Origin: Firmicutes bacterium CAG:449
Lineage (GTDB): Bacteria > Bacillota_I > Bacilli_A > RFN20 > CAG-449
Length of the DNA stretch: 38,329 nucleotides
NCBI GenBank assembly: GCA_000432895.1
Contig: FR889406.1
Span: 51,091 to 89,419 of the forward strand
Direction of reading: 5' to 3'
Position numbers and translations under genes: made by a program
Shown here: in pieces, positions 1,444-23,681 of the stretch
How positions within the stretch are numbered: the first letter of the stretch is position 1
Layout: every line of letters begins with the position of its first letter
The notes under the pieces: generated by a model
Told to the model about the DNA's origin: nothing
What the model saw: the letters and a program-made list of their open reading frames with translations, nothing else
Database searches by the model: none

Positions 1444-1989
1444 CTAATTTGGCACATAACGTCGAAATTTAATTATTATTTTTGTATATTCATTTTCTTT
1501 AGATGATAAGTTAACTTCACCATTATCTAATAAAGAAAATCTCTCTATTAAATTTCTTAAACCTATTGAAGTATTCTTAATATTATTAATATCAAAACCT
1601 TGACCATTATCTTCAATAACGATAGTAATAATTTGATTTTCTTCACTAGTGGATAATCTAATATATCCATTTTGTTTTTTATTAACATTACTATATTTAA
1701 TAGAATTTTCAATAATTGGTTCAATTGATAAAGGTGGAATATAAAAATCATTAACTTTTAAATCATAATCAATAACAAATTTATGTTCTTCTTTTTCATT
1801 CATTAATAAGACATAATCATTAATAATATCTAACTCTTTAGAAAACTCGACTGCTTTTTCTTTGAATATTTCGTTCGATTTACGCATTAAATTATTTAAT
1901 TGTAATAAAGCATTATCACCTTTTTGATGATCTTTCATATACAAAACATCAATCATTGTTAAACTATTAAACAAAAAATGTGGTCGCAT
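1444..1989 (-). CDS. LytS/YehU-type histidine kinase catalytic core (His_kinase H-box plus HATPase_c); probably the 3' part of a frameshifted gene
   Basis: The H-box MRPHFLFNSL sits at the very N-terminus of the ORF. The N-box is IEPIIENSIKYS, G1 is IEDNGQGF and G2 is SIGLRNL. The same frame is open upstream to 2070 (KLNIKQNETIKYNQEILRLKEETLKTQ) without any ATG, GTG or TTG. Confidence 0.85.
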   Translation of the reverse strand: MRPHFLFNSLTMIDVLYMKDHQKGDNALLQLNNLMRKSNEIFKEKAVEFSKELDIINDYVLLMNEKEEHKFVIDYDLKVNDFYIPPLSIEPIIENSIKYSNVNKKQNGYIRLSTSEENQIITIVIEDNGQGFDINNIKNTSIGLRNLIERFSLLDNGEVNLSSKENEYTKIIIKFRRYVPN

Positions 1990-2063
1990 TTGAGTTTTTA
2001 AAGTTTCTTCTTTTAAACGTAAAATTTCTTGATTATATTTAATGGTTTCATTTTGTTTAATAT

Positions 2064-2660
2064 TTAATTTTTATATTCTAAATAAACCACCTTATAAGCA
2101 TTTAAAAATAATAACGCTTCATAAAGAAAATGATAGCCAAATAAACTATACTTACAATCAATAATAGTAAATAAACAATTTAAAAGGTTTAAAAAAGAAA
2201 AAGAAGTAAATTCTTTATTAATAACTAAAATAATAAAATATCCAATAAAATAAATAATTGAAGCAATAAAAGAAGGAATAAAAATATTGATACCACTGAT
2301 GGTTAATAATCCTAAATAGCATAATATATCTTTTTTATGATAATCTTTCTTATTTAAAAATAAAAAGATTGTATAAAATAAATACATGTACTTATTTAAG
2401 AAATCAAAATTAAAATAAATAATTACATTGCTGCCTTCTTTAACACAACTTAAAAATAAAATATTAAAAATTAAAACTAAAACAAATTTAAAATTATTAA
2501 GTTTTAAAACAATATTAACTATGATTAAACCAATAGATGAAAAAAAACAAAATGCAAAAAAGAAAGATCTTGCATTTATAATATAATCAATTGCTCCATT
2601 AACAAAAGATAAACTAAAAAAAGTTAAATAACATATTAAATAAAATATTTTTTTATTCAT
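2064..2660 (-). CDS. Polytopic membrane protein (about 6 TM helices); probably the N-terminal sensor domain of the LytS-type kinase encoded at 1444..2070
   Basis: The 198-aa product is almost entirely hydrophobic helices. Its start overlaps the regulator stop (ATGAATAA). It ends at a TAA immediately after an A5 run (2068..2072), where the kinase frame opens. Confidence 0.7.
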   Translation of the reverse strand: MNKKIFYLICYLTFFSLSFVNGAIDYIINARSFFFAFCFFSSIGLIIVNIVLKLNNFKFVLVLIFNILFLSCVKEGSNVIIYFNFDFLNKYMYLFYTIFLFLNKKDYHKKDILCYLGLLTISGINIFIPSFIASIIYFIGYFIILVINKEFTSFSFLNLLNCLFTIIDCKYSLFGYHFLYEALLFLNAYKVVYLEYKN

Positions 2661-5350: not shown

Positions 5351-5380
5351 ATAATACTCTACTTTAATAGAATTTGTCAA
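5351..5380 (-). promoter_or_regulatory. Sigma-A-type promoter of the signalling operon: -35 TTGACA (5380..5375), 18-nt spacer, -10 TATTAT (5356..5351)
   Basis: The hexamers were read on the minus strand, about 90 nt upstream of the receptor start codon. Confidence 0.5.
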
Positions 5381-5439
5381 TATATGAAAATTTATAAATG
5401 AACGTTTATCCATTATTAATGTAAATTTATGTATATAAA

Positions 5440-5461
5440 AACCATAATTTTAATTATGGTT
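5440..5461 (-). terminator. Hairpin terminator after the prepilin-like gene
   Basis: A perfect inverted repeat AACCATAATT / AATTATGGTT lies 4 nt after the stop codon (5468..5466). On the minus strand it is followed by TTTATAT, which is only a short T-run. Confidence 0.45.
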
Positions 5462-5465
5462 ATGA

Positions 5466-7586
5466 TTAATTATCAAAAGTTGAACAATTATCTAATGTCA
5501 GTTCACCTTTATAATGAACAATAAATTTAAATTCATCAATTTTTCTTTTTTCGTGAACTTCACAATTATTAAAATATCCTTTACCTTTATAATTTACTTC
5601 TATTGCAGTATTTCCTTTAATATAAGTTGAATATCCACTTATTTTTGTGTCATTATCAATATAAATTGCTCTATCACTTACATTTATATTCAAGTCGTGT
5701 ATATATACGTTTTTACTATTTTTATTTTTAATTCCATTTTTGCCATTAATTACGCAATTATATAAATTTGTTTCACCTTTATTAACTTCAACAGCTAAGT
5801 CTTTAGAAGAAACAGTCGATTCTTTTATAGTTAATGATCCATTATCATTTACAATAGGATTTTTTCCAGTAATATTAGATTTTATAACATTAATTGTTCC
5901 TGATAATAAATCTATTGCTTTACTGCATACAATACGATCATCTGAACCAATATGTGAATCTTCAATGTTAATCGTAGATTTAGTATTTTTTATTGCATAG
6001 TGAGCAACAATATTAGATTTTTTAATTGTAACATTAGCCCCATCTTCTGTTTCAATAGAAGTACTTGTAAATTCTTTATGTATAACATTTACATTATCAA
6101 GAACTAATTTTGCCTTTTTACAATAAATTAAAGTACTTACTGCATTAGTTTTATCATTTCCCACACCAACAATTGATCCATTCATAAAAGTAATTGTGTT
6201 ATTCTCCCCACTACAATTAAAAAATGATTTTCCAGCTAAGCTTCGATACATTTCAATTGTATGTCCATTCAAATTAATAACTTTATTAGTGTTAATATCT
6301 ATTTCATTAACAGATTCACTAAAATCAATATCATCATTTAACTTAACATACTCTTTATCTTTTAATAAACTTTCAAACTCTTTTGAATCAATCGTTTTAT
6401 TAGGTGTATTATCAAAATCTTTCCAATCTTTATTGACTAATTCATTTTGACAATCAACACAAACACCATTTTCATTATAATGATGATCACTAATAGGTAA
6501 AACTTCTTGTTCAACTAAAACTTTTCCACATTCAGCACAAATTTTTCCTTCAGTTAAACCAGTTTTTAAACAAGTTGGTTCTATTCTAGGAAGAAGTTTT
6601 TCAATATGTTCATGAATAGGAATAATTAATTCTTTTTGTTGTCTAGTAAAAGCAATATTTTCAAAATTAGCTTCCACTATTTTTTCTCCACTTTCATCAC
6701 AAGTTGCTTCAACATATTTTAAAATATTTATTTTTCCTTCTTCAATTTGATCTTCAACCTTTTTATTTAAATCTTTTCTAATTGCAACGCATGTTGAATA
6801 TGTTTCATCCCAAGTATAAATAGGTTCACTCCAAATAATACATTTTGAAACATCACCATTTAAATTTGAAGATGGAATTTCTGAGCCTTCTTCACCAATA
6901 AAATGACCTTGATCAAGTTTAATACTAGATAGAACTTTCCCATGTTCAATATAAGTATGATCACTAATTGCATGAATGTTTAAATCAGTTAAATAACCAT
7001 AATGAGAAATCGTATCATATAATCCATCTATATATAAACTAGTAATGTATTCTTCACTAGTAAGAATAAGAACATCTTCTTTTTGGCTATTATTAATATA
7101 ATTAATTTGTTTAATTTTATTATTTCCAACATCTAATCCCGATTTAATATTTACTTCTTCATATTCATTAGCACCTTTTAAATAAATAGAAAAATCAGTA
7201 TCTTCTATATTATCTAAAAATTTCCAATAATAAAAATTACTTGGTGCAGTATCACCAAAAACTACCTCATCATTTTCTAATAAAACAAAATTATTATATT
7301 TTTGATTCCAAGCAATTTGACTATCTTCATTAGAGGTAATTAAATCACTCAAAGAATAACCATTATTTTTTAAAACATTTAAAGCATCTTCTGGTGTTCT
7401 AACTTTTTTATTTATTTCTTCAGTTTTTAATAATAAGTTAAGTTGTGAAACAAAACTAATATCATTACTTGCTTTAGCTTTTTTAGTAAAATTAATATAA
7501 CTTGTCGTGGTAACTGTAGCAAGCACTCCTAAAATAGCAATTACAACTAACAATTCGACTAATGTAAATCCTTTTTTCTTTTTCAT
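5466..7586 (-). CDS. Prepilin-type N-terminal cleavage/methylation-domain protein with a large Cys-motif and beta-helix-like C-terminal region
   Basis: The N-terminus MKKKKGFTLVELLVVIAILGVLATV is a canonical type IV pilin/pseudopilin signal, with G-1, F+1 and E+5. The middle carries (A/P)TCxxxG...CxxCG...H motifs (ATCDESGEK..., PTCLKTGLTEGKICAECGKVL..., CVDCQ). The C-terminal ~300 aa contains many short N/I/V/G-rich repeats (NVTIKKSNIV, TINIEDSHIG, TINVIKSNITG, LTIKESTVS) typical of a right-handed beta-helix. I prefer ATG 7586 over the track GTG at 7595. Confidence 0.8.
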   Translation of the reverse strand: MKKKKGFTLVELLVVIAILGVLATVTTTSYINFTKKAKASNDISFVSQLNLLLKTEEINKKVRTPEDALNVLKNNGYSLSDLITSNEDSQIAWNQKYNNFVLLENDEVVFGDTAPSNFYYWKFLDNIEDTDFSIYLKGANEYEEVNIKSGLDVGNNKIKQINYINNSQKEDVLILTSEEYITSLYIDGLYDTISHYGYLTDLNIHAISDHTYIEHGKVLSSIKLDQGHFIGEEGSEIPSSNLNGDVSKCIIWSEPIYTWDETYSTCVAIRKDLNKKVEDQIEEGKINILKYVEATCDESGEKIVEANFENIAFTRQQKELIIPIHEHIEKLLPRIEPTCLKTGLTEGKICAECGKVLVEQEVLPISDHHYNENGVCVDCQNELVNKDWKDFDNTPNKTIDSKEFESLLKDKEYVKLNDDIDFSESVNEIDINTNKVINLNGHTIEMYRSLAGKSFFNCSGENNTITFMNGSIVGVGNDKTNAVSTLIYCKKAKLVLDNVNVIHKEFTSTSIETEDGANVTIKKSNIVAHYAIKNTKSTINIEDSHIGSDDRIVCSKAIDLLSGTINVIKSNITGKNPIVNDNGSLTIKESTVSSKDLAVEVNKGETNLYNCVINGKNGIKNKNSKNVYIHDLNINVSDRAIYIDNDTKISGYSTYIKGNTAIEVNYKGKGYFNNCEVHEKRKIDEFKFIVHYKGELTLDNCSTFDN

Positions 7587-7606
7587 AATAATCACTTTTC
7601 GGGTTA

Positions 7607-7635
7607 ATTATACAAATATCAATATATTAATGCAA
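7607..7635 (-). promoter_or_regulatory. Sigma-A-type promoter of the prepilin-like gene: -35 TTGCAT (7635..7630), 17-nt spacer, -10 TATAAT (7612..7607)
   Basis: The near-consensus hexamers and spacing were read on the minus strand. The implied leader is under 20 nt and has a weak SD. Confidence 0.55.
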
Positions 7636-9650: not shown

Positions 9651-11457
9651 TAAAGCTTTATTTAAACAATCATGCAAAGCAAACGGAACAATGTGGACAA
9701 TTATTACTTTTGCAGTTTGCTTTATGCTTGCATGTGTTATGTTAATCAGTGGTAATGGAAATATTGGTGATGTTAAAAATGCCATTGAAGATACAATTAT
9801 CACAAAAGAAATCGATGCTCAATTAGAAAAAAGAGCAATAAATTATTATAGTAATGCTGATGATGGATTAAATCAATTTGATTACTACTTTACTTTAAAT
9901 GCAACTGATGACTTATCTTATTTAGTTTATTTAAACGCTAAACCAGATCAAAAGAACTATTCATCAACTGTAGACTATCAACAAGCATTATTAATTTGGA
10001 GTCAAAGTGCTCCTGAAATGAAAACCACTGAAGGTAAAAACTATGTTAATTCAATTAATACTTGGTTAAATAGTATGCCTCAACAAGATCAATATACTTC
10101 AGCTCAAGATTATTTAGAAGCTATCAAAAAATGGAAAGAAGAAACTCCTTCTTCCCAAGAAAAAGCTATTGCTTCAAGTTATATTGCCGCGATTAATGAA
10201 TTACAAGAATATATTTATAATAAAGCTCTTGAAATTAATTCTACTTATACAAAAGACTCCTTAGAAACTCAAGAAATGTTAGGATCAGTAATGTATTCAT
10301 TAAATCCAAATGGAATGTTTAATGAATTCTATTCTTCTCATAATGAAGATATCCCTGAAGATTATGATATTATGTCAATCATTGCTCATCTACAAACAAA
10401 TGACGCTTTAGATTATATAAAAAGCGAAGAAAGAGTTTCATATCGTTCAACAAGAAGTGAAAATGGTGCTAGTGTTTTCTTATCAGGTAATATGACTGAA
10501 GAAGAAAATGTTAACAAAATTATTGATGAATTATCCTCTTTTGGTGTTACAAAAGAAAAGTATGATAGCTTTGGATATACTTATACAAATATCAAACACT
10601 TATCAAAAACTGCAATTATTACTTATAAAAATAGATTATCTTATGAATTAGATTTACTTAAAGATAAATATAATAATGGCGAATTTACTTCTCAAGAAGA
10701 ATATCAACAAGCAATTATCGATAAAACAAATGAATTATCTAGTGAAGTTGCAAGTTCATTATTAGCTTCTTTACCTGAAAAAGTTTCTGAAGCTTTAGAA
10801 GATATTGGAAAAGCTGATTTATATACTTTAATCGTTGGTTCTATTTTCTATAAACTTGCTGGATTATTATTACCTATCATCTTTATGATTATGGTCTCTA
10901 ATAACCTTATTTCTGGTCAAGTCGATAGTGGATCAATGGCGTATGTTTTATCAACATCCACTAAAAGAAAAACTGTTAGTTTCACACAAGCAGTTTACTT
11001 AATTGGTTCATTATTAACAATGTTCATCTTAACTACTATTACTGGTAGTGTTTGCTTAGCAATTGTTGGTGATAAAGTAAGTCTTACATATGGAAAATTC
11101 ATTTTGCTTAATGTAGGTGCGTTCTTAGTCTTATTCTGCTTATCTGGACTTTGTTTCTTCACTTCATGCTATTTTGATAGAAGTAAACGTTCTATGGCAA
11201 TCGGTGGAGGTTTATCAATATTTGCTTTAGTTGCTGCCATGTTAGGATTATTTGGTAGTCAAGCAATTCCATCTGTAGTAAGATTAGATTCATTAAATTA
11301 CTTCAACTATGTAACAATTATTTCCTTATTTGATGTTATTTCTATTATTAATAATTCAACAACATTTATTTATAAATTTGCTATTCTCTTTGTACTAGGA
11401 GTAATTGGTTATATTGCTGGGTCAATAAAATTTAGAAAAAAAGATTTACCTTTATAA
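9643..11457 (+). CDS. ABC-2-type permease with one N-terminal TM helix, a ~380-aa extracytoplasmic domain and a C-terminal 5-TM bundle
   Basis: Its start overlaps the stop of ATPase 2. The hydrophobicity pattern fits this topology. The NLISGQVDSGSMAYVLSTSTKRKT motif sits after the first helix of the C-terminal bundle, as is usual in ABC-2 permeases. Confidence 0.75.
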   Translation: MFSKALFKQSCKANGTMWTIITFAVCFMLACVMLISGNGNIGDVKNAIEDTIITKEIDAQLEKRAINYYSNADDGLNQFDYYFTLNATDDLSYLVYLNAKPDQKNYSSTVDYQQALLIWSQSAPEMKTTEGKNYVNSINTWLNSMPQQDQYTSAQDYLEAIKKWKEETPSSQEKAIASSYIAAINELQEYIYNKALEINSTYTKDSLETQEMLGSVMYSLNPNGMFNEFYSSHNEDIPEDYDIMSIIAHLQTNDALDYIKSEERVSYRSTRSENGASVFLSGNMTEEENVNKIIDELSSFGVTKEKYDSFGYTYTNIKHLSKTAIITYKNRLSYELDLLKDKYNNGEFTSQEEYQQAIIDKTNELSSEVASSLLASLPEKVSEALEDIGKADLYTLIVGSIFYKLAGLLLPIIFMIMVSNNLISGQVDSGSMAYVLSTSTKRKTVSFTQAVYLIGSLLTMFILTTITGSVCLAIVGDKVSLTYGKFILLNVGAFLVLFCLSGLCFFTSCYFDRSKRSMAIGGGLSIFALVAAMLGLFGSQAIPSVVRLDSLNYFNYVTIISLFDVISIINNSTTFIYKFAILFVLGVIGYIAGSIKFRKKDLPL

Positions 11458-11467
11458 AAATCAATTG

Positions 11468-11497
11468 GGCTATGGAGTCATCCATAGTCTTTTTTTT
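11468..11497 (+). terminator. Rho-independent terminator of the ABC operon
   Basis: The stem is GGCTATGGA / TCCATAGTC with loop GTCA, followed by T8 (11490..11497). Confidence 0.8.
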
Positions 11498-11562
11498 ATA
11501 ACTATTAAATATTATTTAATATTTTCCTTTTTCGTTGTATAATCTTATCAGGTGAAAAAAAG

Positions 11563-13266
11563 ATGTCATACAAAGCGTTATATAGAACATATCGTCCAAT
11601 GACTTTTGATGAAGTCGCAGGACAAAAACATATTATTCAAACATTAAAAAATGCATTAAAAGAAAACAAAATTGCTCATGCTTATCTTTTCTGCGGTCCT
11701 CGTGGAACAGGCAAAACAACCATGGCAAGAATTTTTGCAAAAGCTTTAAATTGTGAAAAAGGATTTGGTGAGCAATGTAATGAATGCGAAAATTGCCGAG
11801 CAATAATTGAAGGTAGACACCCAGATGTTATTGAAATTGATGCTGCAAGTAATCGTGGTATTGATGATATTAGGGATTTAGTCTCTAAAGTCAAATATGC
11901 TCCTATTTTAGGTCAATATAAAGTTTATATTATCGATGAAGTTCATATGATGACTAATGAAGCGTTCAACGCTTTATTAAAAACTTTAGAAGAACCACCA
12001 GAAAAAACAGTTTTTATTTTAGCTACTACTGAACCATATAAATTAATGCCAACTATTTTATCTAGATGTCAAAGATATGATTTTACTAAAGTTAGTGATG
12101 GTGATATTTATAATCGTTTATTTGATATTTTACAAAACGAGCATATTCAAATGGATGATGACGCTCTTTCTAGTTTAGTTAAACTTGCTGATGGTGGAGT
12201 TAGAGATGCTTTATCAATGTTAGATCAAGTTATTGCTTATCAAGGAAATAATATTACTTTAAAAACAATCGAAGAATTGTATGGTTTATCTTCAAAAGAA
12301 GAAAAAATCAATTTATTAGTTGCTTGCGACAAAAAAGATATTTCTACTTTAACCTCTACTATTCAAACCTTTGCTGAAAATGGTATTGATATTAAACGTT
12401 TAACTTTAGACTTATTAGATATCTTAAAAGATTTATTGATTTATCAAACTACTAAAGATGAAAGTTTATTAAAATTTATTTCTATTAGTGATGTTGATTC
12501 ATTACCTTTACCAGTTAAAAAAATTAATTATTGGATTGATACTTTATTACAAGCTAATTCTCAATTTAAAATGGTCAACAATGTTTTATCTTTATTTGAA
12601 ATCACTCTTTTAAAACTTGCTTCTTATGAAGAAGAGAAAAAAGAAGAAGTTAAAGTTATTGAGAAAGTTGTGGAAGTTAAAAAGCCTACAATTATCCAAG
12701 AAGAGAAAAAAGAGGAAATTAAAACCGAAGAAATAAAAGAAGAAGTTTTACCTTTAACATTTACTAATGTTTCCTTTAGTTCAGTCAACACTTTTGTTGA
12801 AGAAGGAACACCAATTAATTACACTCTTGATGATATTGTAAATATTATGGTTCAAGCTACAAAAGAAGAAAAGACCAAAATTGTTAATAATTGGAAATTA
12901 CTCGATAAATTATTAACTCATCCTAAAGTTGGAAAATATGCCTCTACATTGAAAATGACAACTCCTAGAATTGTTTGTAAATCAGCCGTAGTTTTTGATT
13001 CAAACTTTAAAAGTAATGTCACAAAAATTAATTTAAAAGAAAATCAATATGGTTTTTCTAAAGTAGTCGAAGCTTTATATGGAGAAAATTGTATTGTTTT
13101 ATGTATGAGTCAACAAGATTATATTGAAGCAGTTAAAAAATTTACTAACTTACAACAAGCTAATAAATTGCCTTCAGCTAGAGAAATAACTATTGATGTA
13201 AAAATAAATTCTACACCACAAAAAACCCAAACTGAATTACTCGCAGAAGAATTAAAAGGAGAATAA
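11563..13266 (+). CDS. dnaX: DNA polymerase III subunit tau (gamma/tau)
   Basis: The N-terminus is YRTYRPMTFDEVAGQKHI. Walker A is GPRGTGKTT, the zinc module is CNECENC, and DEVHM and the SRC sensor motif are present. The -10 TATAAT is at 11538..11543 and SD AGGTGA at 11550..11555. Confidence 0.95.
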   Translation: MSYKALYRTYRPMTFDEVAGQKHIIQTLKNALKENKIAHAYLFCGPRGTGKTTMARIFAKALNCEKGFGEQCNECENCRAIIEGRHPDVIEIDAASNRGIDDIRDLVSKVKYAPILGQYKVYIIDEVHMMTNEAFNALLKTLEEPPEKTVFILATTEPYKLMPTILSRCQRYDFTKVSDGDIYNRLFDILQNEHIQMDDDALSSLVKLADGGVRDALSMLDQVIAYQGNNITLKTIEELYGLSSKEEKINLLVACDKKDISTLTSTIQTFAENGIDIKRLTLDLLDILKDLLIYQTTKDESLLKFISISDVDSLPLPVKKINYWIDTLLQANSQFKMVNNVLSLFEITLLKLASYEEEKKEEVKVIEKVVEVKKPTIIQEEKKEEIKTEEIKEEVLPLTFTNVSFSSVNTFVEEGTPINYTLDDIVNIMVQATKEEKTKIVNNWKLLDKLLTHPKVGKYASTLKMTTPRIVCKSAVVFDSNFKSNVTKINLKENQYGFSKVVEALYGENCIVLCMSQQDYIEAVKKFTNLQQANKLPSAREITIDVKINSTPQKTQTELLAEELKGE

Positions 13267-13270
13267 AACT

Positions 13271-13573
13271 ATGAATATGCAAGCATTAATGCAACAAGCA
13301 CAAAAAATGCAAAAAGAAATGCAAAAAAAACAACAAGAATTAGAAAATACTACTTTTGAAGTTTCTAGTGCAGGTGGAGCAATAAAAATTAAAATTAAAG
13401 GATCCCGTCAAATTGAACAAATAGAGATTGATAAAGACGCTATTGATCCAGAAGAAAAAGAAATGCTCGAAGATATGATTAAAGTAGCAATGAATGAAGC
13501 TAATAAGCTTGTTGATGAAGCATTTGAACAATTAAATAGCAGTATGACAAATGGCTTAAGGATGCCTTTTTAA
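13271..13573 (+). CDS. ybaB: YbaB/EbfC family nucleoid-associated protein
   Basis: The 100-aa product begins NMQALMQQAQKMQKEMQKKQQEL and contains SSAGGAIKIKIKG. It occupies the conserved position between dnaX and recR. Confidence 0.9.
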   Translation: MNMQALMQQAQKMQKEMQKKQQELENTTFEVSSAGGAIKIKIKGSRQIEQIEIDKDAIDPEEKEMLEDMIKVAMNEANKLVDEAFEQLNSSMTNGLRMPF

Positions 13574-14178
13574 TGAAAGAATTACAAACGATTGCTAATT
13601 TAACCAATGCCTTAAAAGTAATACCAGGAATTGGAAATAAATCAGCAGAAAGAATTGCTTATGAATTTATTAAAATGAATCCAGAAAAAGTTGATTCATT
13701 AATTAATAGTATTCAAGCCATTAAAAAAGATTTGTCGATTTGTCCAATATGCGGATCTTATATGGAAAATAACAAATGTCAAATTTGTTTAGATTCCACT
13801 AGAGATGATTCTCTTCTTGTAGTAGTCACCTCTTATAAAGATGTTATCGCCTTAGAAAGATTATCTTCTTTACATGCTTTTTATCATGTTTTAAATGGAA
13901 GTATTTCACCAAGTAAAGGTATTACCGCTAGTGATATTAATATTAATAAATTAATTCAAAGAATTAAAAATAATCATTTTAAAGAAATTATTTTAGCTAC
14001 TGACCCGACAATTGATGGAGAAACAACCGCTTTATATATTTCAGAAATATTAAAAGATATTTCTGATTTAATTATTTCTCGTTTAGGATATGGTTTGCCA
14101 ATGGGAGCTAATTTAGATTTCGCCGACGAACTTACTCTTTCTCATGCTTTAAAAGGAAGAACAATTTACAAAAAATAG
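13573..14178 (+). CDS. recR: Recombination protein RecR
   Basis: It has LPGIGNKSAERIAY (HhH), the zinc finger CPICGSYMENNKCQIC and a Toprim region ending in ATDPTIDGETTALY. Confidence 0.95.
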   Translation: MKELQTIANLTNALKVIPGIGNKSAERIAYEFIKMNPEKVDSLINSIQAIKKDLSICPICGSYMENNKCQICLDSTRDDSLLVVVTSYKDVIALERLSSLHAFYHVLNGSISPSKGITASDININKLIQRIKNNHFKEIILATDPTIDGETTALYISEILKDISDLIISRLGYGLPMGANLDFADELTLSHALKGRTIYKK

Positions 14179-14188
14179 GAGTTTTACT

Positions 14189-14812
14189 ATGTCAAATTTT
14201 ATTACTTTAGAAGGTCCTGAAGGATCTGGAAAGTCATCAGTAATGGAAGTAGTCTATTCTAGATTAATTTTAGAAGGCTATGAAATTATCAAAACACGTG
14301 AACCAGGTGGCACTGAAATTGGTGAACAAATACGTAATGTTATTTTAAATAATCAAAATGTTAATATGGACATTCGTGCAGAAGCTTTATTATTTGCCGC
14401 TAGTAGAAGACAACATTTAGTAGAAAAAATTTGGCCTAGTTTAAAAGAAAATAAACTTGTTTTTTGTGATCGCTACCTTGATTCATCTTTATCTTATCAA
14501 GGATATGCTCGAGGTTTAGGAATTGATGAAGTTTTAAAAATTAATTTATTTGCTACTGAAAATACCTTTCCAACTTTAACTCTTTTATTTGATGTTGATC
14601 CAGAAATTGGCTTAAATAGAATTAAAAATAATGCTTCTAGAGAAGTAAATCGTTTAGATAAAGAAAAATTAGAATTTCATAAAAAAGTTAGAGAAGGTTA
14701 TCTTATTCTACAAAAAAGATTTCCTGAAAGAATTAAAATTATTGATGCAAGTCAACCATTTGAACAAGTAGTCGAACAAGCATATAAAGTAATTAAGGAA
14801 AATTTACAATGA
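14189..14812 (+). CDS. tmk: dTMP (thymidylate) kinase
   Basis: Motifs are FITLEGPEGSGKSS (P-loop), TREPGGT and DRYLDSSLSYQG. Confidence 0.95.
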   Translation: MSNFITLEGPEGSGKSSVMEVVYSRLILEGYEIIKTREPGGTEIGEQIRNVILNNQNVNMDIRAEALLFAASRRQHLVEKIWPSLKENKLVFCDRYLDSSLSYQGYARGLGIDEVLKINLFATENTFPTLTLLFDVDPEIGLNRIKNNASREVNRLDKEKLEFHKKVREGYLILQKRFPERIKIIDASQPFEQVVEQAYKVIKENLQ

Positions 14813-15792
14813 GTTTTAAAGAATATTTAAAGAATAATCAAAGAATCGTTTATAACACATTTGCTTCTTCTATTAAAGCAAATCGTCTTTCACATGCATA
14901 TTTAATTAAAGGCAATGAAGGCGCCCCCTTACTTGAAACCGCCTTATTCTTAGCTAAATCTTTAATTTGTCCACATGCTGATCCTTTAGCGTGTGAAGAA
15001 TGTCTAACTTGCATTCGTTTTGATGAAGGAAATTATGCCGATTTTAAATTACTTAACGGGCAAGAAAAAAATATTAAAGTTTCTGATATTGAAGAATTAC
15101 AAGCTTTCTTTCAAAATACTCCAAGTGAAAAATCAAAAAAGATGATTTACATTATTCATGCTTTAGAAAACTCAAACAAAGAAAGTCTTAATGCATTATT
15201 AAAATTTTTAGAAGAACCACAAGAAAATGTATATGCTTTTATTACTACATATAATGAAGAAAAACTTTTACCAACCATTTTATCTAGAACACAACACTTA
15301 AAATTATTACCTCTAAAAAAAGGTGAATTAATTCAAAAAGTTGAAAATGAAGGAATAAGTAAAGATGATGCTGAAATTCTCTCTAACCTTTATGGAAATG
15401 TCGAAACCATTGTTAGTATTGGTTCATCGAAAACATATATTGAAATTAAAAATTTAGTATTTGATACTCTAGATGCTTTACAAAAAGATACTAAAGAGGC
15501 CCTTTTCTTTTTAGAAAATAATGCATTAAATAAATTAAAGGATAAAGTTAACGCTAGATTATATTTAGATATTCTATCTTGCGCATTTAAAGATATCTTA
15601 AATATTCAATTAAATTTACCTATTATAATTGAAAGTCAAAAATATTTATTTGATTCTTTAGCAAAGAAATTAAAAAATGTTGATTCTATTTATAAAGAGA
15701 TTATGCTAACTAGAGGAAAAATAGAATTAAATGTCAATATTGCTCTTTTATTAGAGCATATATTTATTTACATATACGAAGGAGAAAAATAA
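14809..15792 (+). CDS. holB: DNA polymerase III subunit delta prime
   Basis: It has LSHAYLIKG, a Cys cluster (CPHADPLACEECLTC) and ILSRTQ. It occupies the conserved position after tmk, with an ATGA overlap. Confidence 0.85.
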   Translation: MSFKEYLKNNQRIVYNTFASSIKANRLSHAYLIKGNEGAPLLETALFLAKSLICPHADPLACEECLTCIRFDEGNYADFKLLNGQEKNIKVSDIEELQAFFQNTPSEKSKKMIYIIHALENSNKESLNALLKFLEEPQENVYAFITTYNEEKLLPTILSRTQHLKLLPLKKGELIQKVENEGISKDDAEILSNLYGNVETIVSIGSSKTYIEIKNLVFDTLDALQKDTKEALFFLENNALNKLKDKVNARLYLDILSCAFKDILNIQLNLPIIIESQKYLFDSLAKKLKNVDSIYKEIMLTRGKIELNVNIALLLEHIFIYIYEGEK

Positions 15793-15793
15793 T

Positions 15794-16672
15794 ATGGATT
15801 ATCTTTTTGGAGTTAGTTTTAATAATCAAGGAAAACCTCAATTCTTTTTAGCTAACTATGAAATTAACCTTAACGACTCAGTGGTTTGTGAAACTCTTAA
15901 AGGTATTGAGTTAGGAAAAGTAGTTACTAATCCAAAAGAATATGTAGTTAACGAAGAAGATAACCCTTTTACATACATACTTAGACTTGCAAACACAGAA
16001 GATCTTGCTTTATATCAAAAAAATTTAAAAGAAGCTCAAGATGCTTTGAAAATCGTTCAAAACCAAGCTGATAAATTGAGTCTAGATATGAAAGTTACTA
16101 CTAGTGAATATACTTTAGATCAAAGCAAATTAACAATCTCTTATCTATCAGAAGATCGTGTTGATTTCCGTGAATTATTAAAAATACTTGCTTCTATTTA
16201 TCGTTGCCGAATCGAATTAAGACAAATTGGTCCACGTGATAAAGCTAAAATTATCGGTGGTATAGGAATATGTGGATTACCTTTATGCTGTTCAACCTTT
16301 TTAAATGAATTTGACGGAATTTCGATTACTATGGCTAAAAATCAAATGCTCGCGTTAAATATTCCCAAATTATCTGGGCATTGTGGCAAATTAATATGTT
16401 GTTTAAAATATGAAGATGAAGTCTATACTTTAGAAAAACAAAATTTACCTAAAGTTGGTTTAAGAGTAAATTATAATGATCAAGTTTATCGCATTAGTTC
16501 AATTAATATTTTAAATAAAATGGTTAGATTAGAAAATCCAGATAGTATTGTTATTGTTCCATTAAGTGCAATTGAAAATAAAATTATCACTAATTATAAT
16601 CCTAATCAACAAATGAAAAGATCAAATGACATAAAAAAGAAAAAAAAGGAAAAGAAAGATGAAGAGAATTAA
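15794..16672 (+). CDS. ricT: PSP1-domain protein, RicT (YaaT) homologue
   Basis: The PSP1 C-terminal pattern is present (IELRQIGPRDKAKIIGGIGICGLPLCCSTFL...GHCGKLICCLKYE). It occupies the conserved position after holB. Confidence 0.85.
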   Translation: MDYLFGVSFNNQGKPQFFLANYEINLNDSVVCETLKGIELGKVVTNPKEYVVNEEDNPFTYILRLANTEDLALYQKNLKEAQDALKIVQNQADKLSLDMKVTTSEYTLDQSKLTISYLSEDRVDFRELLKILASIYRCRIELRQIGPRDKAKIIGGIGICGLPLCCSTFLNEFDGISITMAKNQMLALNIPKLSGHCGKLICCLKYEDEVYTLEKQNLPKVGLRVNYNDQVYRISSINILNKMVRLENPDSIVIVPLSAIENKIITNYNPNQQMKRSNDIKKKKKEKKDEEN

Positions 16673-17498
16673 ATCATATGAACAATCTTCATTATGCTAT
16701 CTTGTTGCTACCCCAATAGGTAATTTACAAGATTTTTCTTCACGTGGAAAAGAAGTTCTTTCTAGTGTTGATATAATTGCTTGTGAAGATACTAGAACCA
16801 CTGCTTCTTTACTTTCTTATTATAATATTAAAAAAACATTAATTTCTTATCATGAACATAATGAGCAAAACGCTTCACAAAAACTTCTTGAATTATTAAA
16901 AGAAGGTAAAAAGATTGCTATTGTTTCTGATGCTGGATATCCTGGTATTTCAGATCCAGGCGAAATTATGGTTAAACACTGCATTGAAAATAATATTCCT
17001 GTTTCTATTATTCCAGGAGGAAATGCCTTTTTACCAGCTTTAATTGGCTCTGGATTAGATAATGAACATTTCTATTTTCATGGATTTTTACCATCTAAAC
17101 CTACTTTAAGAAGAAAAGAATTAGAAAAATTATCTACTTATGAAATGACAATTATTTTTTATGAATCACCTCATCGCATAAAAGAAACTTTAAATGATAT
17201 TTATGATATTTTTAAAGAAAGAAAAATGTGTTTAGTTAGAGAAATAACTAAAATCCATGAAGAATATATTTATGGCACCACTTCTGAATTAATTAATTTA
17301 GATGAAACTACTTTAAAAGGTGAAATGGTCTTAGTTATTGAAGGAAATAAAAATAAAAAAGAATATTCTGATGAAGAATTATTATCTTTAATTAATGAAA
17401 ATATTACTACAGGCTTATCAAAAAAAGAAGCATGCAAAAAAGTTGAAGAATTAACAAACATCAAAAAGAATTATTTATATCAACTTACTTTAAAATAA
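16659..17498 (+). CDS. rsmI: 16S rRNA (cytidine1402-2'-O)-methyltransferase
   Basis: Motifs are LYLVATPIGNLQD, IACEDTR, VSDAGYPGISDPG and FYESPHR. Confidence 0.92.
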   Translation: MKRIKSYEQSSLCYLVATPIGNLQDFSSRGKEVLSSVDIIACEDTRTTASLLSYYNIKKTLISYHEHNEQNASQKLLELLKEGKKIAIVSDAGYPGISDPGEIMVKHCIENNIPVSIIPGGNAFLPALIGSGLDNEHFYFHGFLPSKPTLRRKELEKLSTYEMTIIFYESPHRIKETLNDIYDIFKERKMCLVREITKIHEEYIYGTTSELINLDETTLKGEMVLVIEGNKNKKEYSDEELLSLINENITTGLSKKEACKKVEELTNIKKNYLYQLTLK

Positions 17499-18068
17499 TT
17501 ATTTTAATCTTTTTTCTTCAAAAGTTTTAAACCAATCAATTGTATACTCATATAATTCATCTAAAGTACGAGAAGAATAATTACGACAATATTTTACATA
17601 TTCACAAACTAAACCCTCAATAAATATGTTGATTTCAAGATCAACATATTTTTTTCTTTTCAATGAATAATCTTCATAGCATAACTCTAAAATTTTATTA
17701 GAAGCTAAAGAAGTAATTTTTTGCGCTGCAAATAAAAAATCATTTGATCGGCAAAGCATTTTATAATTTTCATCATTCTTTTTAAAATAATCAAAAAACA
17801 AATCAATAAACTCATAAAAGTTTTTTGACTTAATTAATTTTGTATTATCAAAAAAATACTCAATTAATTCATTTTCGTAATCTTCTGCAACTGAATAAAT
17901 ATCATCATAATGAGCATAAAATGTTCCACGATTAATCTCGGCTCTATTAACAAGTTCAGTTACAGTAATTTTATCTAATTCTTTTTTTTCAGCTAATAAT
18001 TCAGCAAACGTTTTTTTAATTATTTTTCTTGTTTTAATTGATGATTTATTAAGGTTTTTGACTTTCAT
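17499..18068 (-). CDS. TetR/AcrR family transcriptional regulator
   Basis: The N-terminal HTH reads IKKTFAELLAEKKELDKITVTELVNRAEINRGTFYAHY. Its stop codon directly abuts the rsmI stop codon (17496..17501). Confidence 0.85.
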   Translation of the reverse strand: MKVKNLNKSSIKTRKIIKKTFAELLAEKKELDKITVTELVNRAEINRGTFYAHYDDIYSVAEDYENELIEYFFDNTKLIKSKNFYEFIDLFFDYFKKNDENYKMLCRSNDFLFAAQKITSLASNKILELCYEDYSLKRKKYVDLEINIFIEGLVCEYVKYCRNYSSRTLDELYEYTIDWFKTFEEKRLK

Positions 18069-18088
18069 TATTTGTACATCCTTTTAAA

Positions 18089-18110
18089 CAATGTTGAAAT
18101 ATTAACATTG
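18089..18110. promoter_or_regulatory. Palindromic operator candidate CAATGTT-GAAATATT-AACATTG in the TetR-family divergent promoter region
   Basis: The 7-bp perfect arms were read directly. The site lies between the divergent starts at 18068 (-) and 18172 (+). Confidence 0.5.
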
Positions 18111-18171
18111 ATATTTTCATTGTAATGTAATTTATGGTAAAATACAATCATAATGATTAAGGGAGAATTTT

Positions 18172-18627
18172 ATGTTTGAATTAAAAAAATTATGTAACTC
18201 ATATGAAAATATGACGCCTCTAGAAAAAGGCAAATTATTAACTGAAAAATCAGCAAAAGTATTATTAGCACTTAAAGTTTTAGACATCCCTGGAGTTAAC
18301 CCTATTGACACACTTGCCGCTTTTATTATTGGAGCAATAGTTTCTGATGGCGTTATTAACGAAAAAGAATATTTATTTATGTATCCAGCTTTAATTAAAA
18401 CATTCGGTGATGATTTTGATTTTACAAGAATAAAAAAATCATTTGAGAAAGATAAACAAGGTCGACAAATGATAAAAGATTACACTCAAGATATGATGAT
18501 GATTTTTTCATTCATTAGTGAATCATTAAAAGAAGATATTATTGCTTTATGTTTATGTATTCTTTCTATTGATGGTAAAATCTCTCTTAAAGAAAAAATT
18601 TATATAAGAAAGTTAATAAAGGCATAA
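18172..18627 (+). CDS. Small cytoplasmic protein, tentatively TerB-like
   Basis: Two copies of the pattern xxDGxIxxKE occur (IVSDGVINEKEYLF and LSIDGKISLKEKIYI), as in TerB-family helical proteins. SD AAGGGAG precedes the start. The assignment is weak. Confidence 0.35.
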   Translation: MFELKKLCNSYENMTPLEKGKLLTEKSAKVLLALKVLDIPGVNPIDTLAAFIIGAIVSDGVINEKEYLFMYPALIKTFGDDFDFTRIKKSFEKDKQGRQMIKDYTQDMMMIFSFISESLKEDIIALCLCILSIDGKISLKEKIYIRKLIKA

Positions 18628-18634
18628 TAAACTT

Positions 18635-19342
18635 ATGGAACTATTTATACAAATATCATTTATTTTTATCTTAGGTGGTAGCATTGGCTATTTAATGGAA
18701 TTAATCTTTAGAAGAATAGTTCATAAAAAATGGATTAATCCTGGCTTTCTTACTGGTCCTTGCTTACCTTTATACGGCTCTGGATTATTATTTCTTTATT
18801 TAATTTGTTCTTTAGATTATAGTTTTATTTCTTCAACTGTTTTAAGAACTATCTTCATTATTATTTTAATCACCTTTATGATGACTTTAATTGAATATAT
18901 AACTGGAATTATCTTTATTAAAAGAATGAATGTTAAATTATGGGATTATTCTTCTAGACCAGGTAATATCCAAGGAATCATTTGCCCATTATTTACTTTT
19001 TTTTGGGGAGTAATTGGTGCTTTATATTACTTTTTATTACATCCATTTATTGCCCAAGCCGCTTTATGGATTAGTGAACATCCTCTCTTTTCATATTTTA
19101 TTGGTATGTATTTTGGAGTATTTATTGTTGATATATGCTATTCATTCCATGTTGTTAGTAAAATCAAATCATGGGCAAAAGAACACGATATTGTTGTTAG
19201 ATATGAAGAATTAAAAGAATCAATTAAAGCTAAAGCGGATCGACTAAAAGAGAAAAAACATTTCGTCTTTTCCTTCAAATCCAAAGATTCCTTTATTGAT
19301 TCATTAAATAACTATCTTGCTGAAAGAAAAGCTCGTAAATAA
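18635..19342 (+). CDS. Membrane protein of the 'putative ABC-transporter type IV' family (PF06541/DUF1113-like)
   Basis: The motifs NPGFLTGPCLPLYGSG and KLWDYSSRPGNIQGIICPLFTFFWG match the family pattern I recall (NRGFLNGPxCPIYGFG, KxWDYSxxPxNIxGxIC). Confidence 0.7.
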   Translation: MELFIQISFIFILGGSIGYLMELIFRRIVHKKWINPGFLTGPCLPLYGSGLLFLYLICSLDYSFISSTVLRTIFIIILITFMMTLIEYITGIIFIKRMNVKLWDYSSRPGNIQGIICPLFTFFWGVIGALYYFLLHPFIAQAALWISEHPLFSYFIGMYFGVFIVDICYSFHVVSKIKSWAKEHDIVVRYEELKESIKAKADRLKEKKHFVFSFKSKDSFIDSLNNYLAERKARK

Positions 19343-19369
19343 ACTGTGAAAAAACTTCACAGTTTTTTT
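19343..19369 (+). terminator. Rho-independent terminator (+ strand)
   Basis: The stem is ACTGTGAA / TTCACAGT with loop AAAAC, followed by T6. Confidence 0.8.
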
Positions 19370-19370
19370 A

Positions 19371-19402
19371 ATAAAAAAAATAGACTATCATTAAATAGTC
19401 TA
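19371..19402 (-). terminator. Rho-independent terminator (- strand) for ntdP
   Basis: The stem is TAGACTAT / ATAGTCTA (19381..19402) and includes the TAG stop codon. On the minus strand it is followed by T8. Confidence 0.7.
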
Positions 19403-19948
19403 AAAAATTTCATCTTGTTCCTTTTTTATTTGATAATAAACATTAATATATTCAAACATCTTTTTATTATCAAAAGGAAACGCTCTTTTTTTCATTAAAT
19501 TTTTTACTCTTTCAAATTCATGTAAAACTATTTTATCTATTTCATTAGAATAATGATATTTTTCTTTATGAAATAAATATTCTTTTTTATCAAGTTCAAT
19601 AATTGAATTATCTGGAAATAATTTTAAATCTAAATCATAATCAATATACTCTAAAGTCATTTTATCTTCTAAAGTAGGAGAAGCGATATTACAATAATAA
19701 CAAACATTATCACCTCTAATCATTGCGATAACATTAAACCAATTATTTAAAAAATAAATCGATACTGCTGGTTCTTTTGTATACCAAATTCTTCCATCAC
19801 ATTCAACCACTCTTGAAGCACATGAGCCAGTAACAATATAATCATCACTAACATCAATCACCATCATATTATCCCAAGTACGATGTAATGAGCCATCATG
19901 TTTATATGATCGAGTTCTAATCCATTTACCAATACTGCTCTTATCCAT
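19400..19948 (-). CDS. ntdP: Nucleoside tri-/diphosphate phosphatase (DUF402/UPF0374, YgaC/Ntdp family)
   Basis: Family motifs are SYKHDGSLHRTW, EPAVSIYFLNNWFNVIAMIR, YYCNIASP and YIDYDLDLK. Confidence 0.85.
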   Translation of the reverse strand: MDKSSIGKWIRTRSYKHDGSLHRTWDNMMVIDVSDDYIVTGSCASRVVECDGRIWYTKEPAVSIYFLNNWFNVIAMIRGDNVCYYCNIASPTLEDKMTLEYIDYDLDLKLFPDNSIIELDKKEYLFHKEKYHYSNEIDKIVLHEFERVKNLMKKRAFPFDNKKMFEYINVYYQIKKEQDEIF

Positions 19949-19951
19949 AAA

Positions 19952-21153: not shown

Positions 21154-21567
21154 ATGGATAGAATACAACCACCACCTAATTATTTTGGTGCACCATATCC
21201 AAATAATGGTACGCCATACCAACCTAATCAAGAACCAGTAAATCCTTATCCAAATGGAACATATCCTCAACCAATGCAACCAAATATGTATCGTGATGAT
21301 ATGGATAAAACTGTTACCGAATTCTATGAATCATTTAATAAATTTGTTTCTAGCAATTTAGGAAGAAATGTTAATGTACATTGCTCATTTACTGATTCAA
21401 CTCAATGGCACGACAAAGAATTTATCGGTATTCTTGCATCTGCTGGTGATAATTACATCATTATCTTCAACAAAGAAGAAAATAAACACTATTTAATTGT
21501 AGGCGTTTATATTGATTACATTGAATTCTCTGACCAAATAACAATGGATGGCGTCACAACAAAATAA
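21154..21567 (+). CDS. gerQ: GerQ-like spore coat protein
   Basis: The P/N/Q/Y-rich N-terminus is followed by a C-terminal block (NVNVHCSFTDSTQWHDKEFIGILASAGDNYIIIFNKEENKHYLIVGVYIDYIEFSDQI). This parallels the GerQ pattern I recall (TVYMTFENSxEWxxKxFxGVxEAAGRDHIIISDPxxGxRYLLLxxYLDYIxFDEEI). Confidence 0.55.
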   Translation: MDRIQPPPNYFGAPYPNNGTPYQPNQEPVNPYPNGTYPQPMQPNMYRDDMDKTVTEFYESFNKFVSSNLGRNVNVHCSFTDSTQWHDKEFIGILASAGDNYIIIFNKEENKHYLIVGVYIDYIEFSDQITMDGVTTK

Positions 21568-21759: not shown

Positions 21760-22317
21760 CAAGAAGATGCAGATGATAACATTATTTTCCAATACATTGG
21801 TGATTCTGAAATCAAGAAAGATGATATCTATGGCGGATTTAGTATTAGTATCGAGGGAAAATTAGAAAATGTTAGACAGCGTTTTGACATCGATTTAGCC
21901 ACTGCTGATATTGTTTGCCCATATGATTGCGATTACGAGTATGAATGCTTGATTACGCGTGAAATAATTCGCTTGAAGAGTTACTCTATTGAAAGTGTAG
22001 TTGCCGAAAAAATGCAGACATTTCTTTTAAAAGGAGTCATCAATAGTCGAACAAAGGATTTGTACGATCTTTATATTTTGGAAAAGTTCATAGGAAAAAA
22101 TGATAAATTTTTGAAGGAAACATTCATAAAAACTTGTGAAAATAGGAAATTCGAAATCAATAATGAAAAAGCAATGAATACTCTGAAATCTGTTAAATCA
22201 AATATGATTCAAAGAAAGAGATGGGAAACATATGCAAAGAAAATGAGTTACGCAAAAGAAGTATTATTTGATGATATAATTTCTTCTATTAATCACCTAC
22301 TAGAAATTCTAATTTAA
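21760..22317 (+). pseudogene. 5'-truncated nucleotidyltransferase AbiEii/AbiGii-family toxin remnant (C-terminal ~185 codons only)
   Basis: The frame of track ORF 21949..22317 (TTG start) is open back to the TGA at 21757..21759. It reads QEDADDNIIFQYIGDSEIKKDDIYGGFSISIEGKLENVRQRFDIDLATADIVCPYDCDYEYECLITREIIRLKSYSIESVVAEKMQTFL...SRTKDLYDLYIL. This matches the middle and C-terminal AbiEii pattern. There is no start codon, no SD, no N-terminal NTase region and no upstream antitoxin gene. Confidence 0.65.
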
Positions 22318-22478: not shown

Positions 22479-23681
22479 ATGAAACGATGTCAAAAATGTA
22501 ATAAAGAATTTGAAGAAGAATATTTATTTTGCCCATATTGTGGAACAAAATATTGTAAAAAAATAAAATGTCCAAATTGTCAAAAAGAAATTGACCAAAA
22601 TTCTTCTTTCTGTGGCTTTTGTGGAGCAAAAATAACTAAAGAAAAAGTTGTTAAAAACGATAATATAAGTTCAATCTTTGATTTAATTAAAAAAATATCC
22701 TTATTAGTTTTAGTTTGTTTTGCAATGATTTTCTTTTTTCTTCCAATCATTAATAATAATTCCTTTTATTTACAAACTAAAAACATTTCCTTATTAAGTT
22801 TTTTAAATTCATCATTTTTTAATCAATTATCTTATCTTTTTGATTTATTAAAAAATGAAAAACAAAACATTGTAAATTCATCAATACCTATTTTAATAAT
22901 CTATCTAACAAGTGCAATAGTTTGTTATATTGGAGCAATTATCGCTATTACATTTGGAATTATTTCTATTATAAAAATAACTAACTCATTAATTAACAAA
23001 TCAAAAATTAACACTACAATACCAGCTATTGCTATAGGAAGTTATTTTATCAGTAGCATTTGTTTATTCTTTGTTGCAGGTGGAAAAAATACATCCTTAA
23101 ATATTTCTATTGGAAATTTTTCTTTAGTTTTTATAATCTTTTTAATTGTAACTTTATTAATAAGTGTAGCAATTATTATTTTAGATTTAATAAATAATAA
23201 GCCTGTCTTTAATTCAAAAAAAATTGCTTCTTTAGTCATAAAAACAATTAATCTAGTATTAACTTTAATTATTCCATTTATCCTTATTGGAGGGATTTAT
23301 TATTTATCTGATTCATCAATAGAATATTATGTATCTGAGCCAATCTTAATGATAAGTCTTTTTGAACTATTGAACCAAGGAATATCGTCTCCAACTACTT
23401 TATATGTAATTCTTTATTACTTTATAATGGTAATTATTGTCCTTATTTTATGTAACTTTACTGCAAGTTTAAGAAATTTCAATAAAAAATTTTCTATATT
23501 TAATTTTATATTATCTATTATCCAATTTATCTCTATTTTAGTTTTATTTATCATTATGATATCAAATCAAATAGATAATGTTTCTTTAAGTTCTAATTTC
23601 TATTTTATAATTATTCTTAATATTATTAATCTTGGATTAAATATTTCTACTTTTACATTAAGTAAAATTTCTACAAAATAA
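22479..23681 (+). CDS. Double zinc-ribbon domain protein fused to a polytopic membrane domain
   Basis: The N-terminus carries four CxxC pairs (CQKCNK...CPYCG...CPNCQ...CGFCG). About 9 hydrophobic helices follow. SD AGGGGAG precedes the start. Confidence 0.75.
   Translation: MKRCQKCNKEFEEEYLFCPYCGTKYCKKIKCPNCQKEIDQNSSFCGFCGAKITKEKVVKNDNISSIFDLIKKISLLVLVCFAMIFFFLPIINNNSFYLQTKNISLLSFLNSSFFNQLSYLFDLLKNEKQNIVNSSIPILIIYLTSAIVCYIGAIIAITFGIISIIKITNSLINKSKINTTIPAIAIGSYFISSICLFFVAGGKNTSLNISIGNFSLVFIIFLIVTLLISVAIIILDLINNKPVFNSKKIASLVIKTINLVLTLIIPFILIGGIYYLSDSSIEYYVSEPILMISLFELLNQGISSPTTLYVILYYFIMVIIVLILCNFTASLRNFNKKFSIFNFILSIIQFISILVLFIIMISNQIDNVSLSSNFYFIIILNIINLGLNISTFTLSKISTK

Follow-up and report, generated by a model that had tools for sequence, protein, structure and literature searches.

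What does a 706-residue protein with a type IV prepilin signal at one end and a predicted β-helix at the other do in a genomic region that holds no pilus genes? The gene lies on the minus strand at 5466..7586 of a 38,329-nucleotide stretch of Firmicutes bacterium CAG:449 (assembly GCA_000432895.1, contig FR889406.1, positions 51,091 to 89,419), here called the window, which has a guanine–cytosine (GC) content of ~25%. The protein is probably a modular minor type IV pilin that would be carried on a pilus encoded elsewhere in the genome and would use its β-helix as an adhesin or glycan binder. An earlier reading made from the letters of the window (the original prediction) had proposed a pilus-displayed adhesin or enzyme. 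This is the best-supported reading: two relatives are encoded beside complete or near-complete pilus clusters and share their first helix, α1, with a short pilin.

Gene and prepilin signal

The 706-residue open reading frame (ORF) is real. A program-made list gives an ORF at 5466..7595 on the minus strand, 709 residues long from an upstream GTG; translation from the ATG at 7586 yields the 706-residue protein, which starts MKKKKGFTLVELL / MKKKKGFTLVELLVVIAILGVLATV and ends at the stop codon 5466..5468. About 58 database proteins of exactly this length, 706 residues, are 95-100% identical to it. The gene was also compared with its copy on L001, a 180-kb contig of a metagenome-assembled genome (GCA_964313085.1, CAYBWZ010000026.1) that is collinear with the window; the two copies differ at 13 of 2121 nucleotides. 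All parts of the gene described below are on the minus strand.

Judged by its sequence, the N-terminus is a true class III (prepilin) signal, as originally predicted. The leader MKKKKG is followed by FTLVELLVVIAILGVLATV, with Gly-1, Phe+1 and Glu+5 all in place. Both prepilin models match above their curated cutoffs: Pfam N_methyl PF07963 at 1.2e-9 and 37.8 bits (cutoff 21.2), NCBIfam TIGR02532 at 3.4e-8 and 33 bits (cutoff 16.3). Beyond this motif, no Pfam or NCBIfam model matched above cutoff anywhere in the 706 residues. The signal and the long α1 together occupy residues 1-57 (7416..7586). The α1 segment, FTLVELLVVIAILGVLATVTTTSYINFTKKAKASND, is a 49-residue helix in the AlphaFold model of the full-length protein (residues 9-57) and covers residues 9-54 in a model of the N-terminal module alone. 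Pilins in PDB align to residues 1-50 only. The protein thus has the basic leader, Gly, Phe+1, Glu+5 and hydrophobic stretch (~20 residues) of the type IV pilin class catalogued as PF07963, TIGR02532 and IPR012902, together with an extended α1 of ~50 residues according to AlphaFold and the PDB pilin alignment.

The conserved N-terminal carrier

Sequence searches resolve the relatives of the protein into layers. BLAST returns same-species copies, then P0062-P0066, which align to ~residue 546 at 35-41% identity, and then more than 50 proteins of 395-1107 residues whose common region is residues 1-~245 only, at 31-52% identity and with unrelated C-termini. An exhaustive HMMER search with residues 30-250, from which the prepilin helix was left out, finds 1017 family representatives with a limit of E<=1e-3, of which 504 also pass E<=1e-10; each stands for a cluster at 50% identity. 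In 147 of the 150 matches listed the alignment starts at hit residue 28-48, directly after the prepilin helix. The matching proteins are mostly 500-1350 residues long, again with unrelated C-termini. Nearly all sampled members carry the motif G/A|FT(L/I)xEL, and PF07963 is present in 69 of 70 diverse ones; only four of the 70 have another Pfam domain, one each with LRR_5, Big_2, Beta_helix and PF20585, the 'pectate lyase-like adhesive domain'. A scan of contigs on the generic prepilin motif met 80 pilins from Planctomycetota, Patescibacteria and other groups, which are unrelated.

The ~245-residue N-terminal module, composed of α1, a small sheet and a small β-solenoid, defines a large family that has no Pfam or NCBIfam model. 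The label 'orphan' given to the protein at first is therefore evolutionarily wrong: the conserved module is found in more than 1000 cluster representatives. A distinct domain after the signal had also been proposed, and it exists, but the conserved module is ~245 residues long rather than ~270.

AlphaFold models the module alone at a predicted local distance difference test score (pLDDT) of 89 and a predicted template modelling score of 0.80. Its first part, residues 58-125 (7212..7415), is a predicted small pilin-like head that is conserved in the family and comprises a helix (65-74) and four strands (89-94, 99-104, 107-110 and 120-124). The head is followed by a conserved small β-solenoid-like stalk, residues 126-245 (6852..7211), defined by invariant alignment columns and modelled at pLDDT 90-96, with the motifs YSxYL, GLDVGxN, IRTN, HYG and SYHExG. 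Invariant residues of the module in the family alignment include S40, D42, Q48, N50, G76, D152, G154, H195, Y196, Y212 and G216.

The predicted C-terminal β-helix

Beyond the carrier the C-terminal region varies among family members; the window protein carries a β module, one Cys knuckle and a right-handed β-helix. The last of these, with its N-terminal cap helices, takes up residues 386-706 (5469..6431) and is modelled at pLDDT mostly 80-95 within a full-length model of mean pLDDT 82.3. Two cap helices are followed by regular short strands from 413 to 704/706, which form a predicted β-helix of ~290 residues. Foldseek searches with this model against PDB return the Hbp autotransporter passenger (1.2e-4) and the CBA120 tailspike TSP3 (3.6e-4), and further the Dettilon tailspike, fucoidan lyase FdlA, the serine-rich repeat protein (SRRP) adhesin of L. 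reuteri, the AlgE4/AlgE6 epimerases, pectate lyase Pel9A and a polygalacturonase; matches in BFVD are tailspike and pectate-lyase-superfamily proteins. Most tailspike, lyase and polygalacturonase matches have a Foldseek probability of 1.00; for the SRRP adhesin and Pel9A it is 0.98-0.99. Identity is 8-15% and E ranges from 1e-4 to 5e-2 for a query that is itself a predicted model, so the assignment as a right-handed β-helix holds at the level of fold only. At that level the predicted three-dimensional fold is that of the pectate-lyase-like right-handed β-helices.

The original prediction of a prepilin-type protein with a non-pilin β-helix payload is borne out by the signal models and the predicted fold. 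Structure prediction and fold search, which it had named as a check, gave an ordered C-terminal region with short strands at 413-706 that resembles known right-handed β-helix proteins. The profile search it had also named, for pectate-lyase-like or adhesin β-helix families, returned no Pfam or NCBIfam match to the window protein. A homologue search with the C-terminal 307 residues found same-species fragments only, with no homologue outside the species. A prophage tailspike was considered as a source of the fold and rejected: no phage genes lie nearby and a prepilin N-terminus is present.

Is the β-helix an adhesin or an enzyme? Its role is predicted from the modelled fold. On the same carrier it could be a depolymerase, so that the pilus would deliver a lyase or hydrolase of polysaccharides, and many of the Foldseek matches do cleave glycans (tailspikes, FdlA, Pel9A, polygalacturonase, GH110 and K1 capsule lyase). 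Peptidase modules, too, are among those that an InterPro census predicts for modular pilins (PMC8179133). At 8-15% identity, however, the resemblance is one of fold, no Pfam or NCBIfam lyase or glycoside-hydrolase model matched, and no catalytic motif can be aligned. Equally good matches are non-enzymatic adhesins or passengers (SRRP and Hbp), and the sole family-level Pfam match of the kind is an 'adhesive' domain, PF20585. An enzymatic payload is the less likely of the two, and a binding role for the β-helix is tentatively preferred.

Relatives beside pilus clusters

Gene neighbourhoods were compared in nine relatives; eleven loci were available, of which L004 and L005 (same protein) and L086 and L093 (same flanking order) were counted once each. 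Two neighbourhoods link the family to pilus machinery. At locus L087, a family member of 1107 residues (P0085) lies ~3 kb upstream of a pilus cluster on the same strand; the cluster encodes a 151-residue pilin, minor pilins, a PilM-like gene, Peptidase_A24 (262 residues), T2SSF (403 residues) and T2SSE with MshEN (556 residues). At locus L094, two family members (640 and 604 residues) lie ~6 kb upstream of a 151-residue pilin, a 118-residue pilin, Peptidase_A24 and T2SSF; this locus ends after PilD and PilC.

The same loci show a shared α1. In L094 a count by eye gives 30 matching residues among the 35 that follow the cleavage site when the short pilin is set against a family member of that locus. 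The 151-residue pilin of L087 is 52% identical to the window protein over 67 residues and 53% identical to P0085 over 64 residues. The similarity exceeds the generic motif, since it extends over 64-67 residues and the generic motif covers 25.

The PilD of L087 is 98% identical to a prepilin peptidase of Candidatus Caccosoma sp., which corresponds to GTDB genus CAG-631 in order RFN20 (PMC8035907), and the locus has a GC content of 25%, as in the window. A search with this peptidase gives a PilD clade of ~55 orthologues at 45-68% identity. Two further loci of the same low-GC clade, L089 and L091, have the PilD-PilC-PilB layout of L087. None of the PilD orthologues can be assigned to the window species: L089 has 31% GC, and L091 has 27% GC and no shared genes. 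Tetranucleotide correlation does not discriminate here, with 0.77 between the window halves and 0.61-0.82 for other loci.

These linkages bear on the main alternative, in which the class III signal would serve only for cleavable targeting and anchoring, and the protein would stay tethered to the membrane or join short non-pilus assemblies with no long filament. The family genes are mostly scattered at a distance from pilus operons, and one genome frequently has multiple copies; the large size of the products also makes packing into the body of a filament unlikely. A documented case of non-pilin surface proteins with such a signal is the archaeal Sulfolobus bindosome, whose sugar-binding proteins carry it (PMC3047682). 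Against this, Glu+5 and the whole ~50-residue α1, the polymerisation interface, are conserved and nearly identical to those of a short pilin of the same genome, which would be superfluous for a mere anchor. The two relatives at L087 and L094 adjoin pilus clusters, and a prepilin peptidase would still be required. Anchoring without a filament is unlikely on this balance, and assembly into a type IV pilus is favored.

A minor pilin of the Com pseudopilus, acting in DNA uptake in the manner of ComZ or of ComGF/ComGG, is very improbable. Thermus thermophilus ComZ (PDB 6QVI) is a competence pilin with a DNA-binding β-solenoid at the pilus tip (PMC6561018), and the N-terminus of the window protein gives weak NCBIfam matches to ComGE, ComGC and ComGF. 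These matches reflect the generic helix only, at 22 bits against 49, 18 against 75 and 15 against 80, respectively. ComZ comes 11th in the Foldseek results, at E = 3.8. The clusters linked to relatives contain PilB with MshEN, PilC and a PilM-like gene, which is a type IV pilus layout and not a comG operon, and hypervariable, multi-copy C-termini do not suit a DNA receptor. As a classification, a Com pseudopilin (ComGC-GG) was rejected; the NCBIfam equivalog cutoffs were not reached and the window has no comG context.

Several further observations were made around family genes. In several relatives (L086 9185-9957; L093 9185-9957 and 12025-12779; L094 2951-3729) family members are immediately preceded by a recurring pair of small genes, one for a ~200-residue protein and the next for a ~55-residue single-pass membrane protein. 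The stop of the membrane-protein gene overlaps the start of the pilin gene; neither member of the pair has a Pfam match, and the pair is absent from the window. On the 402-kb contig L002, four N_methyl genes encoding 530-734 residues lie within ~10 kb (10001-20428), followed by a fifth large gene (516 residues) with no N_methyl match. Just upstream of this paralogue group, and divergent from it, are a LytTR response regulator and a HATPase_c_5 kinase; in L089 a LytTR system of similar type comes after the PilD-PilC-PilB genes. This is a weak hint that LytTR-type two-component systems might regulate pilus or family genes in the clade.

Proposed mechanism and points against it

The protein would enter the membrane through its hydrophobic N-terminus. 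A prepilin peptidase of the PilD type, with its gene outside the window, would cleave after Gly6 and methylate Phe+1, and a PilB/PilC machine would then build the protein into a type IV pilus through the α1 helix. The tip or a priming position would be the most likely location, given the bulk of the subunit. The filament would bring the β-helix through the wall, where it would serve in adhesion or bind a glycan or other surface ligand; enzymatic cleavage of glycans would be the less likely role. Swapping C-terminal modules on a constant carrier, which a genome often encodes in several scattered paralogues, would widen the range of ligands for the pilus.

Several points weigh against this proposal. 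The 38-kb window yielded no PilD, PilB, PilC or second pilin. Pfam scans of its ORFs, covering most of those of at least 100 residues, gave no Peptidase_A24, T2SSE or T2SSF; four ORFs at 14189..17498 were identified through gene calls on the collinear contig L001, and a six-frame scan of the window found no second prepilin motif. The original prediction had likewise seen no pilus machinery within 38 kb. In seven of the nine relatives, and in the neighbourhood of the window gene itself (L001), the family gene sits amid housekeeping genes, and no pilus gene lies closer than 10 kb. A Foldseek search with the N-terminal module gave neither a pilin nor any significant match at all (best E = 0.57); the matches below significance are small β-helices, among them CARP, an antifreeze protein, tapirin and ComZ. 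The 'pilin head' is accordingly a candidate head, recognised from AlphaFold topology alone. The β-helix has no sequence-level family, with no PF13229/PF12708-type Pfam or NCBIfam match even at E<=1. Finally, a subunit with a predicted mass of 78 kDa would have to cross the cell wall.

β module and Cys segment

Between carrier and β-helix lie two smaller regions. Residues 246-332 (6591..6851) form a predicted β module of the 'YTWxxxxxC(T/V)AxR' type, with AlphaFold strands at pLDDT 78-89. A module of the same type occurs in P0062, P0085 and P0113, and searches found no Pfam or PDB relative of it. Residues 333-385 (6432..6590), modelled with low confidence at pLDDT 52-67, hold a single canonical Cys knuckle, PTCLKTGLTEGKICAECG...H, and further on a CxxC motif at 376-379; both were recognised by inspection of the Cys residues. 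The eight Cys are at 249, 266, 296, 339, 350, 353, 376 and 379, the first three of them in the β module.

The original prediction had described repeated Cys units that looked metal-binding. One canonical unit, PTCLKTGLTEGKICAEC at residues 337-353, and partial ones are indeed present, but the repetition is seen only in relatives, which have 2-10 tandem units. The knuckle is a putative Zn-binding (C3H) site. A ~41-residue repeat, xATCxxxGLTEGxxCxxCxxxLxxQxxIPALGH, which has three Cys and a single His, forms tandem arrays of 9-10 copies in P0074, P0086 and P0113. These are large non-pilin surface proteins of gut Bacillota, and P0074 also has BspA-type leucine-rich repeats. The counterpart in the window protein is residues 337-372 (nucleotides ~6471..6578). 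Neither the repeat nor the Cys region has a Pfam model or a PDB relative; the repeat may be an extracellular Zn-knuckle spacer.

Flanking signals and neighbouring genes

A putative sigma-70-type promoter, TTGCAT-17 nucleotides-TATAAT, was read from the sequence at 7607..7635 on the minus strand. Its -10 element is perfect and its 17-nucleotide spacer stands as originally described, but TTGCAT matches TTGACA at only three of six positions, so that 'near-consensus' overstates it; this mismatch is also why the site is absent from the promoter-scan list. At the 3' side, RNA folding supports an intrinsic-terminator-like hairpin with a U-run (5434..5461, minus strand). The hairpin at 5440..5461, noted already in the first reading, has a 9-bp stem, a 4-nucleotide loop, a folding energy of -7.5 kcal/mol and z = -2.2, and is followed by UUUUU. 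The downstream operon has a separate promoter, TTGACA-18-TATTAT, at 5380..5351. With its own putative promoter, the hairpin and U-run, and this separate downstream promoter, the monocistronic layout claimed for the gene is plausible. An Rfam search found no RNA markers in the window.

The downstream operon encodes a 597-residue membrane protein, a response regulator and a PF06580 kinase, and a functional link between this seven-transmembrane receptor (7TMR) operon and the pilin-like gene had been raised. The operon adjoins the gene only within the species (L001). The proposed co-occurrence check found it in none of the nine relatives' neighbourhoods, and the kinase is frameshifted in the window; a functional link is not supported. 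Co-regulation with the adjacent sensor operon was rejected, as the neighbourhood is not conserved in relatives.

The kinase gene (window 1444..2660, minus strand; L001 14927..15880) has, in comparison with L001, lost one nucleotide at ~2067, which splits it into ORFs of 198 and 181 residues. The two sequences cease to be collinear at about window position 1729, where the L001 kinase is itself shortened to 317 residues. The kinase seems either to be damaged differently in each strain or to reflect a homopolymer assembly error.

Other genes of the window are of separate interest. A Spore_GerQ-domain protein at 21154..21567 hints at a lineage able to form spores; spoIIA, sigF, spoVA and gerA genes are present in L091, a member of the clade. 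A truncated AbiEii toxin fragment of 122 residues (21949..22317), which matches profile positions 131-234 of 238, is by its sequence a decayed toxin-antitoxin remnant. At 22479..23681 a 400-residue protein with an N-terminal double zinc ribbon (DZR, Zn_Ribbon_1, DUF7575) adjoins a DUF3810 protein.

Relation to known systems and significance

A modular pilin combines an N-terminal pilin module with a module that is not specific to pili (Raynaud et al. 2021). The window protein has both parts: its predicted β-helix is common to tailspikes, lyases and adhesins, and its Cys unit recurs in P0074, P0086 and P0113. InterPro holds more than 1200 modular pilins in 264 architectures, and an undercount is expected where the extra modules lack signatures (PMC8179133). 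The nearest described examples are Streptococcus sanguinis PilB (pilin + vWA) and PilC (pilin + lectin), which share with the window protein a class III signal, a small pilin module (a candidate one in the window protein), a bulky C-terminal module and a single-membrane host, and for which adhesion from the pilus, probably from its tip, has been proposed (PMC8179133). The carrier described here is larger, at ~245 residues, and includes a conserved β-solenoid. Its payload has no database signature and would be missed by an InterPro-based census. The genes usually lie outside the pil operon and are often multi-copy, and the protein is known from sequence and model alone.

Other systems resemble the protein in part. 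ComZ also joins a pilin-type N-terminus to a large β-solenoid, and steric arguments would put a subunit of this build at the filament tip. Its solenoid, however, is inserted in the pilin sheet and is triangular, like that of ice-binding proteins, whereas the predicted helices here stand in series after the head and the C-terminal one is pectate-lyase-like. ComZ also binds DNA in a two-membrane bacterium. A ComZ-like solenoid pilin was accordingly rejected as a class for the protein, on the serial domain order and on the rank of 6qvi_B, 11th in Foldseek with a template modelling score of 0.13. L. reuteri SRRP (5NY0), Hbp (1WXR), tailspikes (6NW9, 6F7K), FdlA and Pel9A share the fold predicted for residues 413-706, but at 8-15% identity there is no detectable sequence relation; none has a prepilin signal, and their catalytic or binding residues cannot be transferred. 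The Sulfolobus bindosome proteins (PMC3047682) resemble the window protein in being large functional surface proteins that bear a class III signal and have genes outside a pilus operon. They are archaeal, use Bas machinery and bind solutes, whereas in relatives of the window protein α1 matches the short pilin of a linked cluster.

The concept of the modular pilin is already established, and the protein is an unrecorded member of this group, not a new kind of system. What is new here is a specific family with a conserved carrier of candidate pilin head and small solenoid, signature-less β-helix payloads and a dispersed, multi-copy layout in uncultured low-GC gut Bacillota. A bolder extension is that the ~245-residue module is a dedicated, exchangeable pilus-tip adaptor for hypervariable, multi-paralogue β-helix payloads in small-genome gut Bacillota (RFN20-like Bacilli); this is quite unlikely. 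If true, a single type IV pilus would carry many payloads, some of them maybe glycan depolymerases, and the arrangement would be a pilus version of the display of tailspikes on phages or of cellulosomes, which these lineages would use as a main way to display surface proteins.

Most work on type IV pili concerns cultured pathogens. The present family numbers over 1000 clusters (50% identity) and points to giant modular pilins in uncultured low-GC gut Bacillota, where signature-based censuses would miss them. A hidden Markov model of the N-terminal module would improve the annotation of metagenomic proteins now labelled 'prepilin-type N-terminal cleavage/methylation domain protein'. The constant carrier with its variable payload would be a compact example of pilus diversification. 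If displayed on pili, these proteins would be candidate determinants of the attachment of these prevalent gut bacteria to mucus, dietary glycans or other cells.

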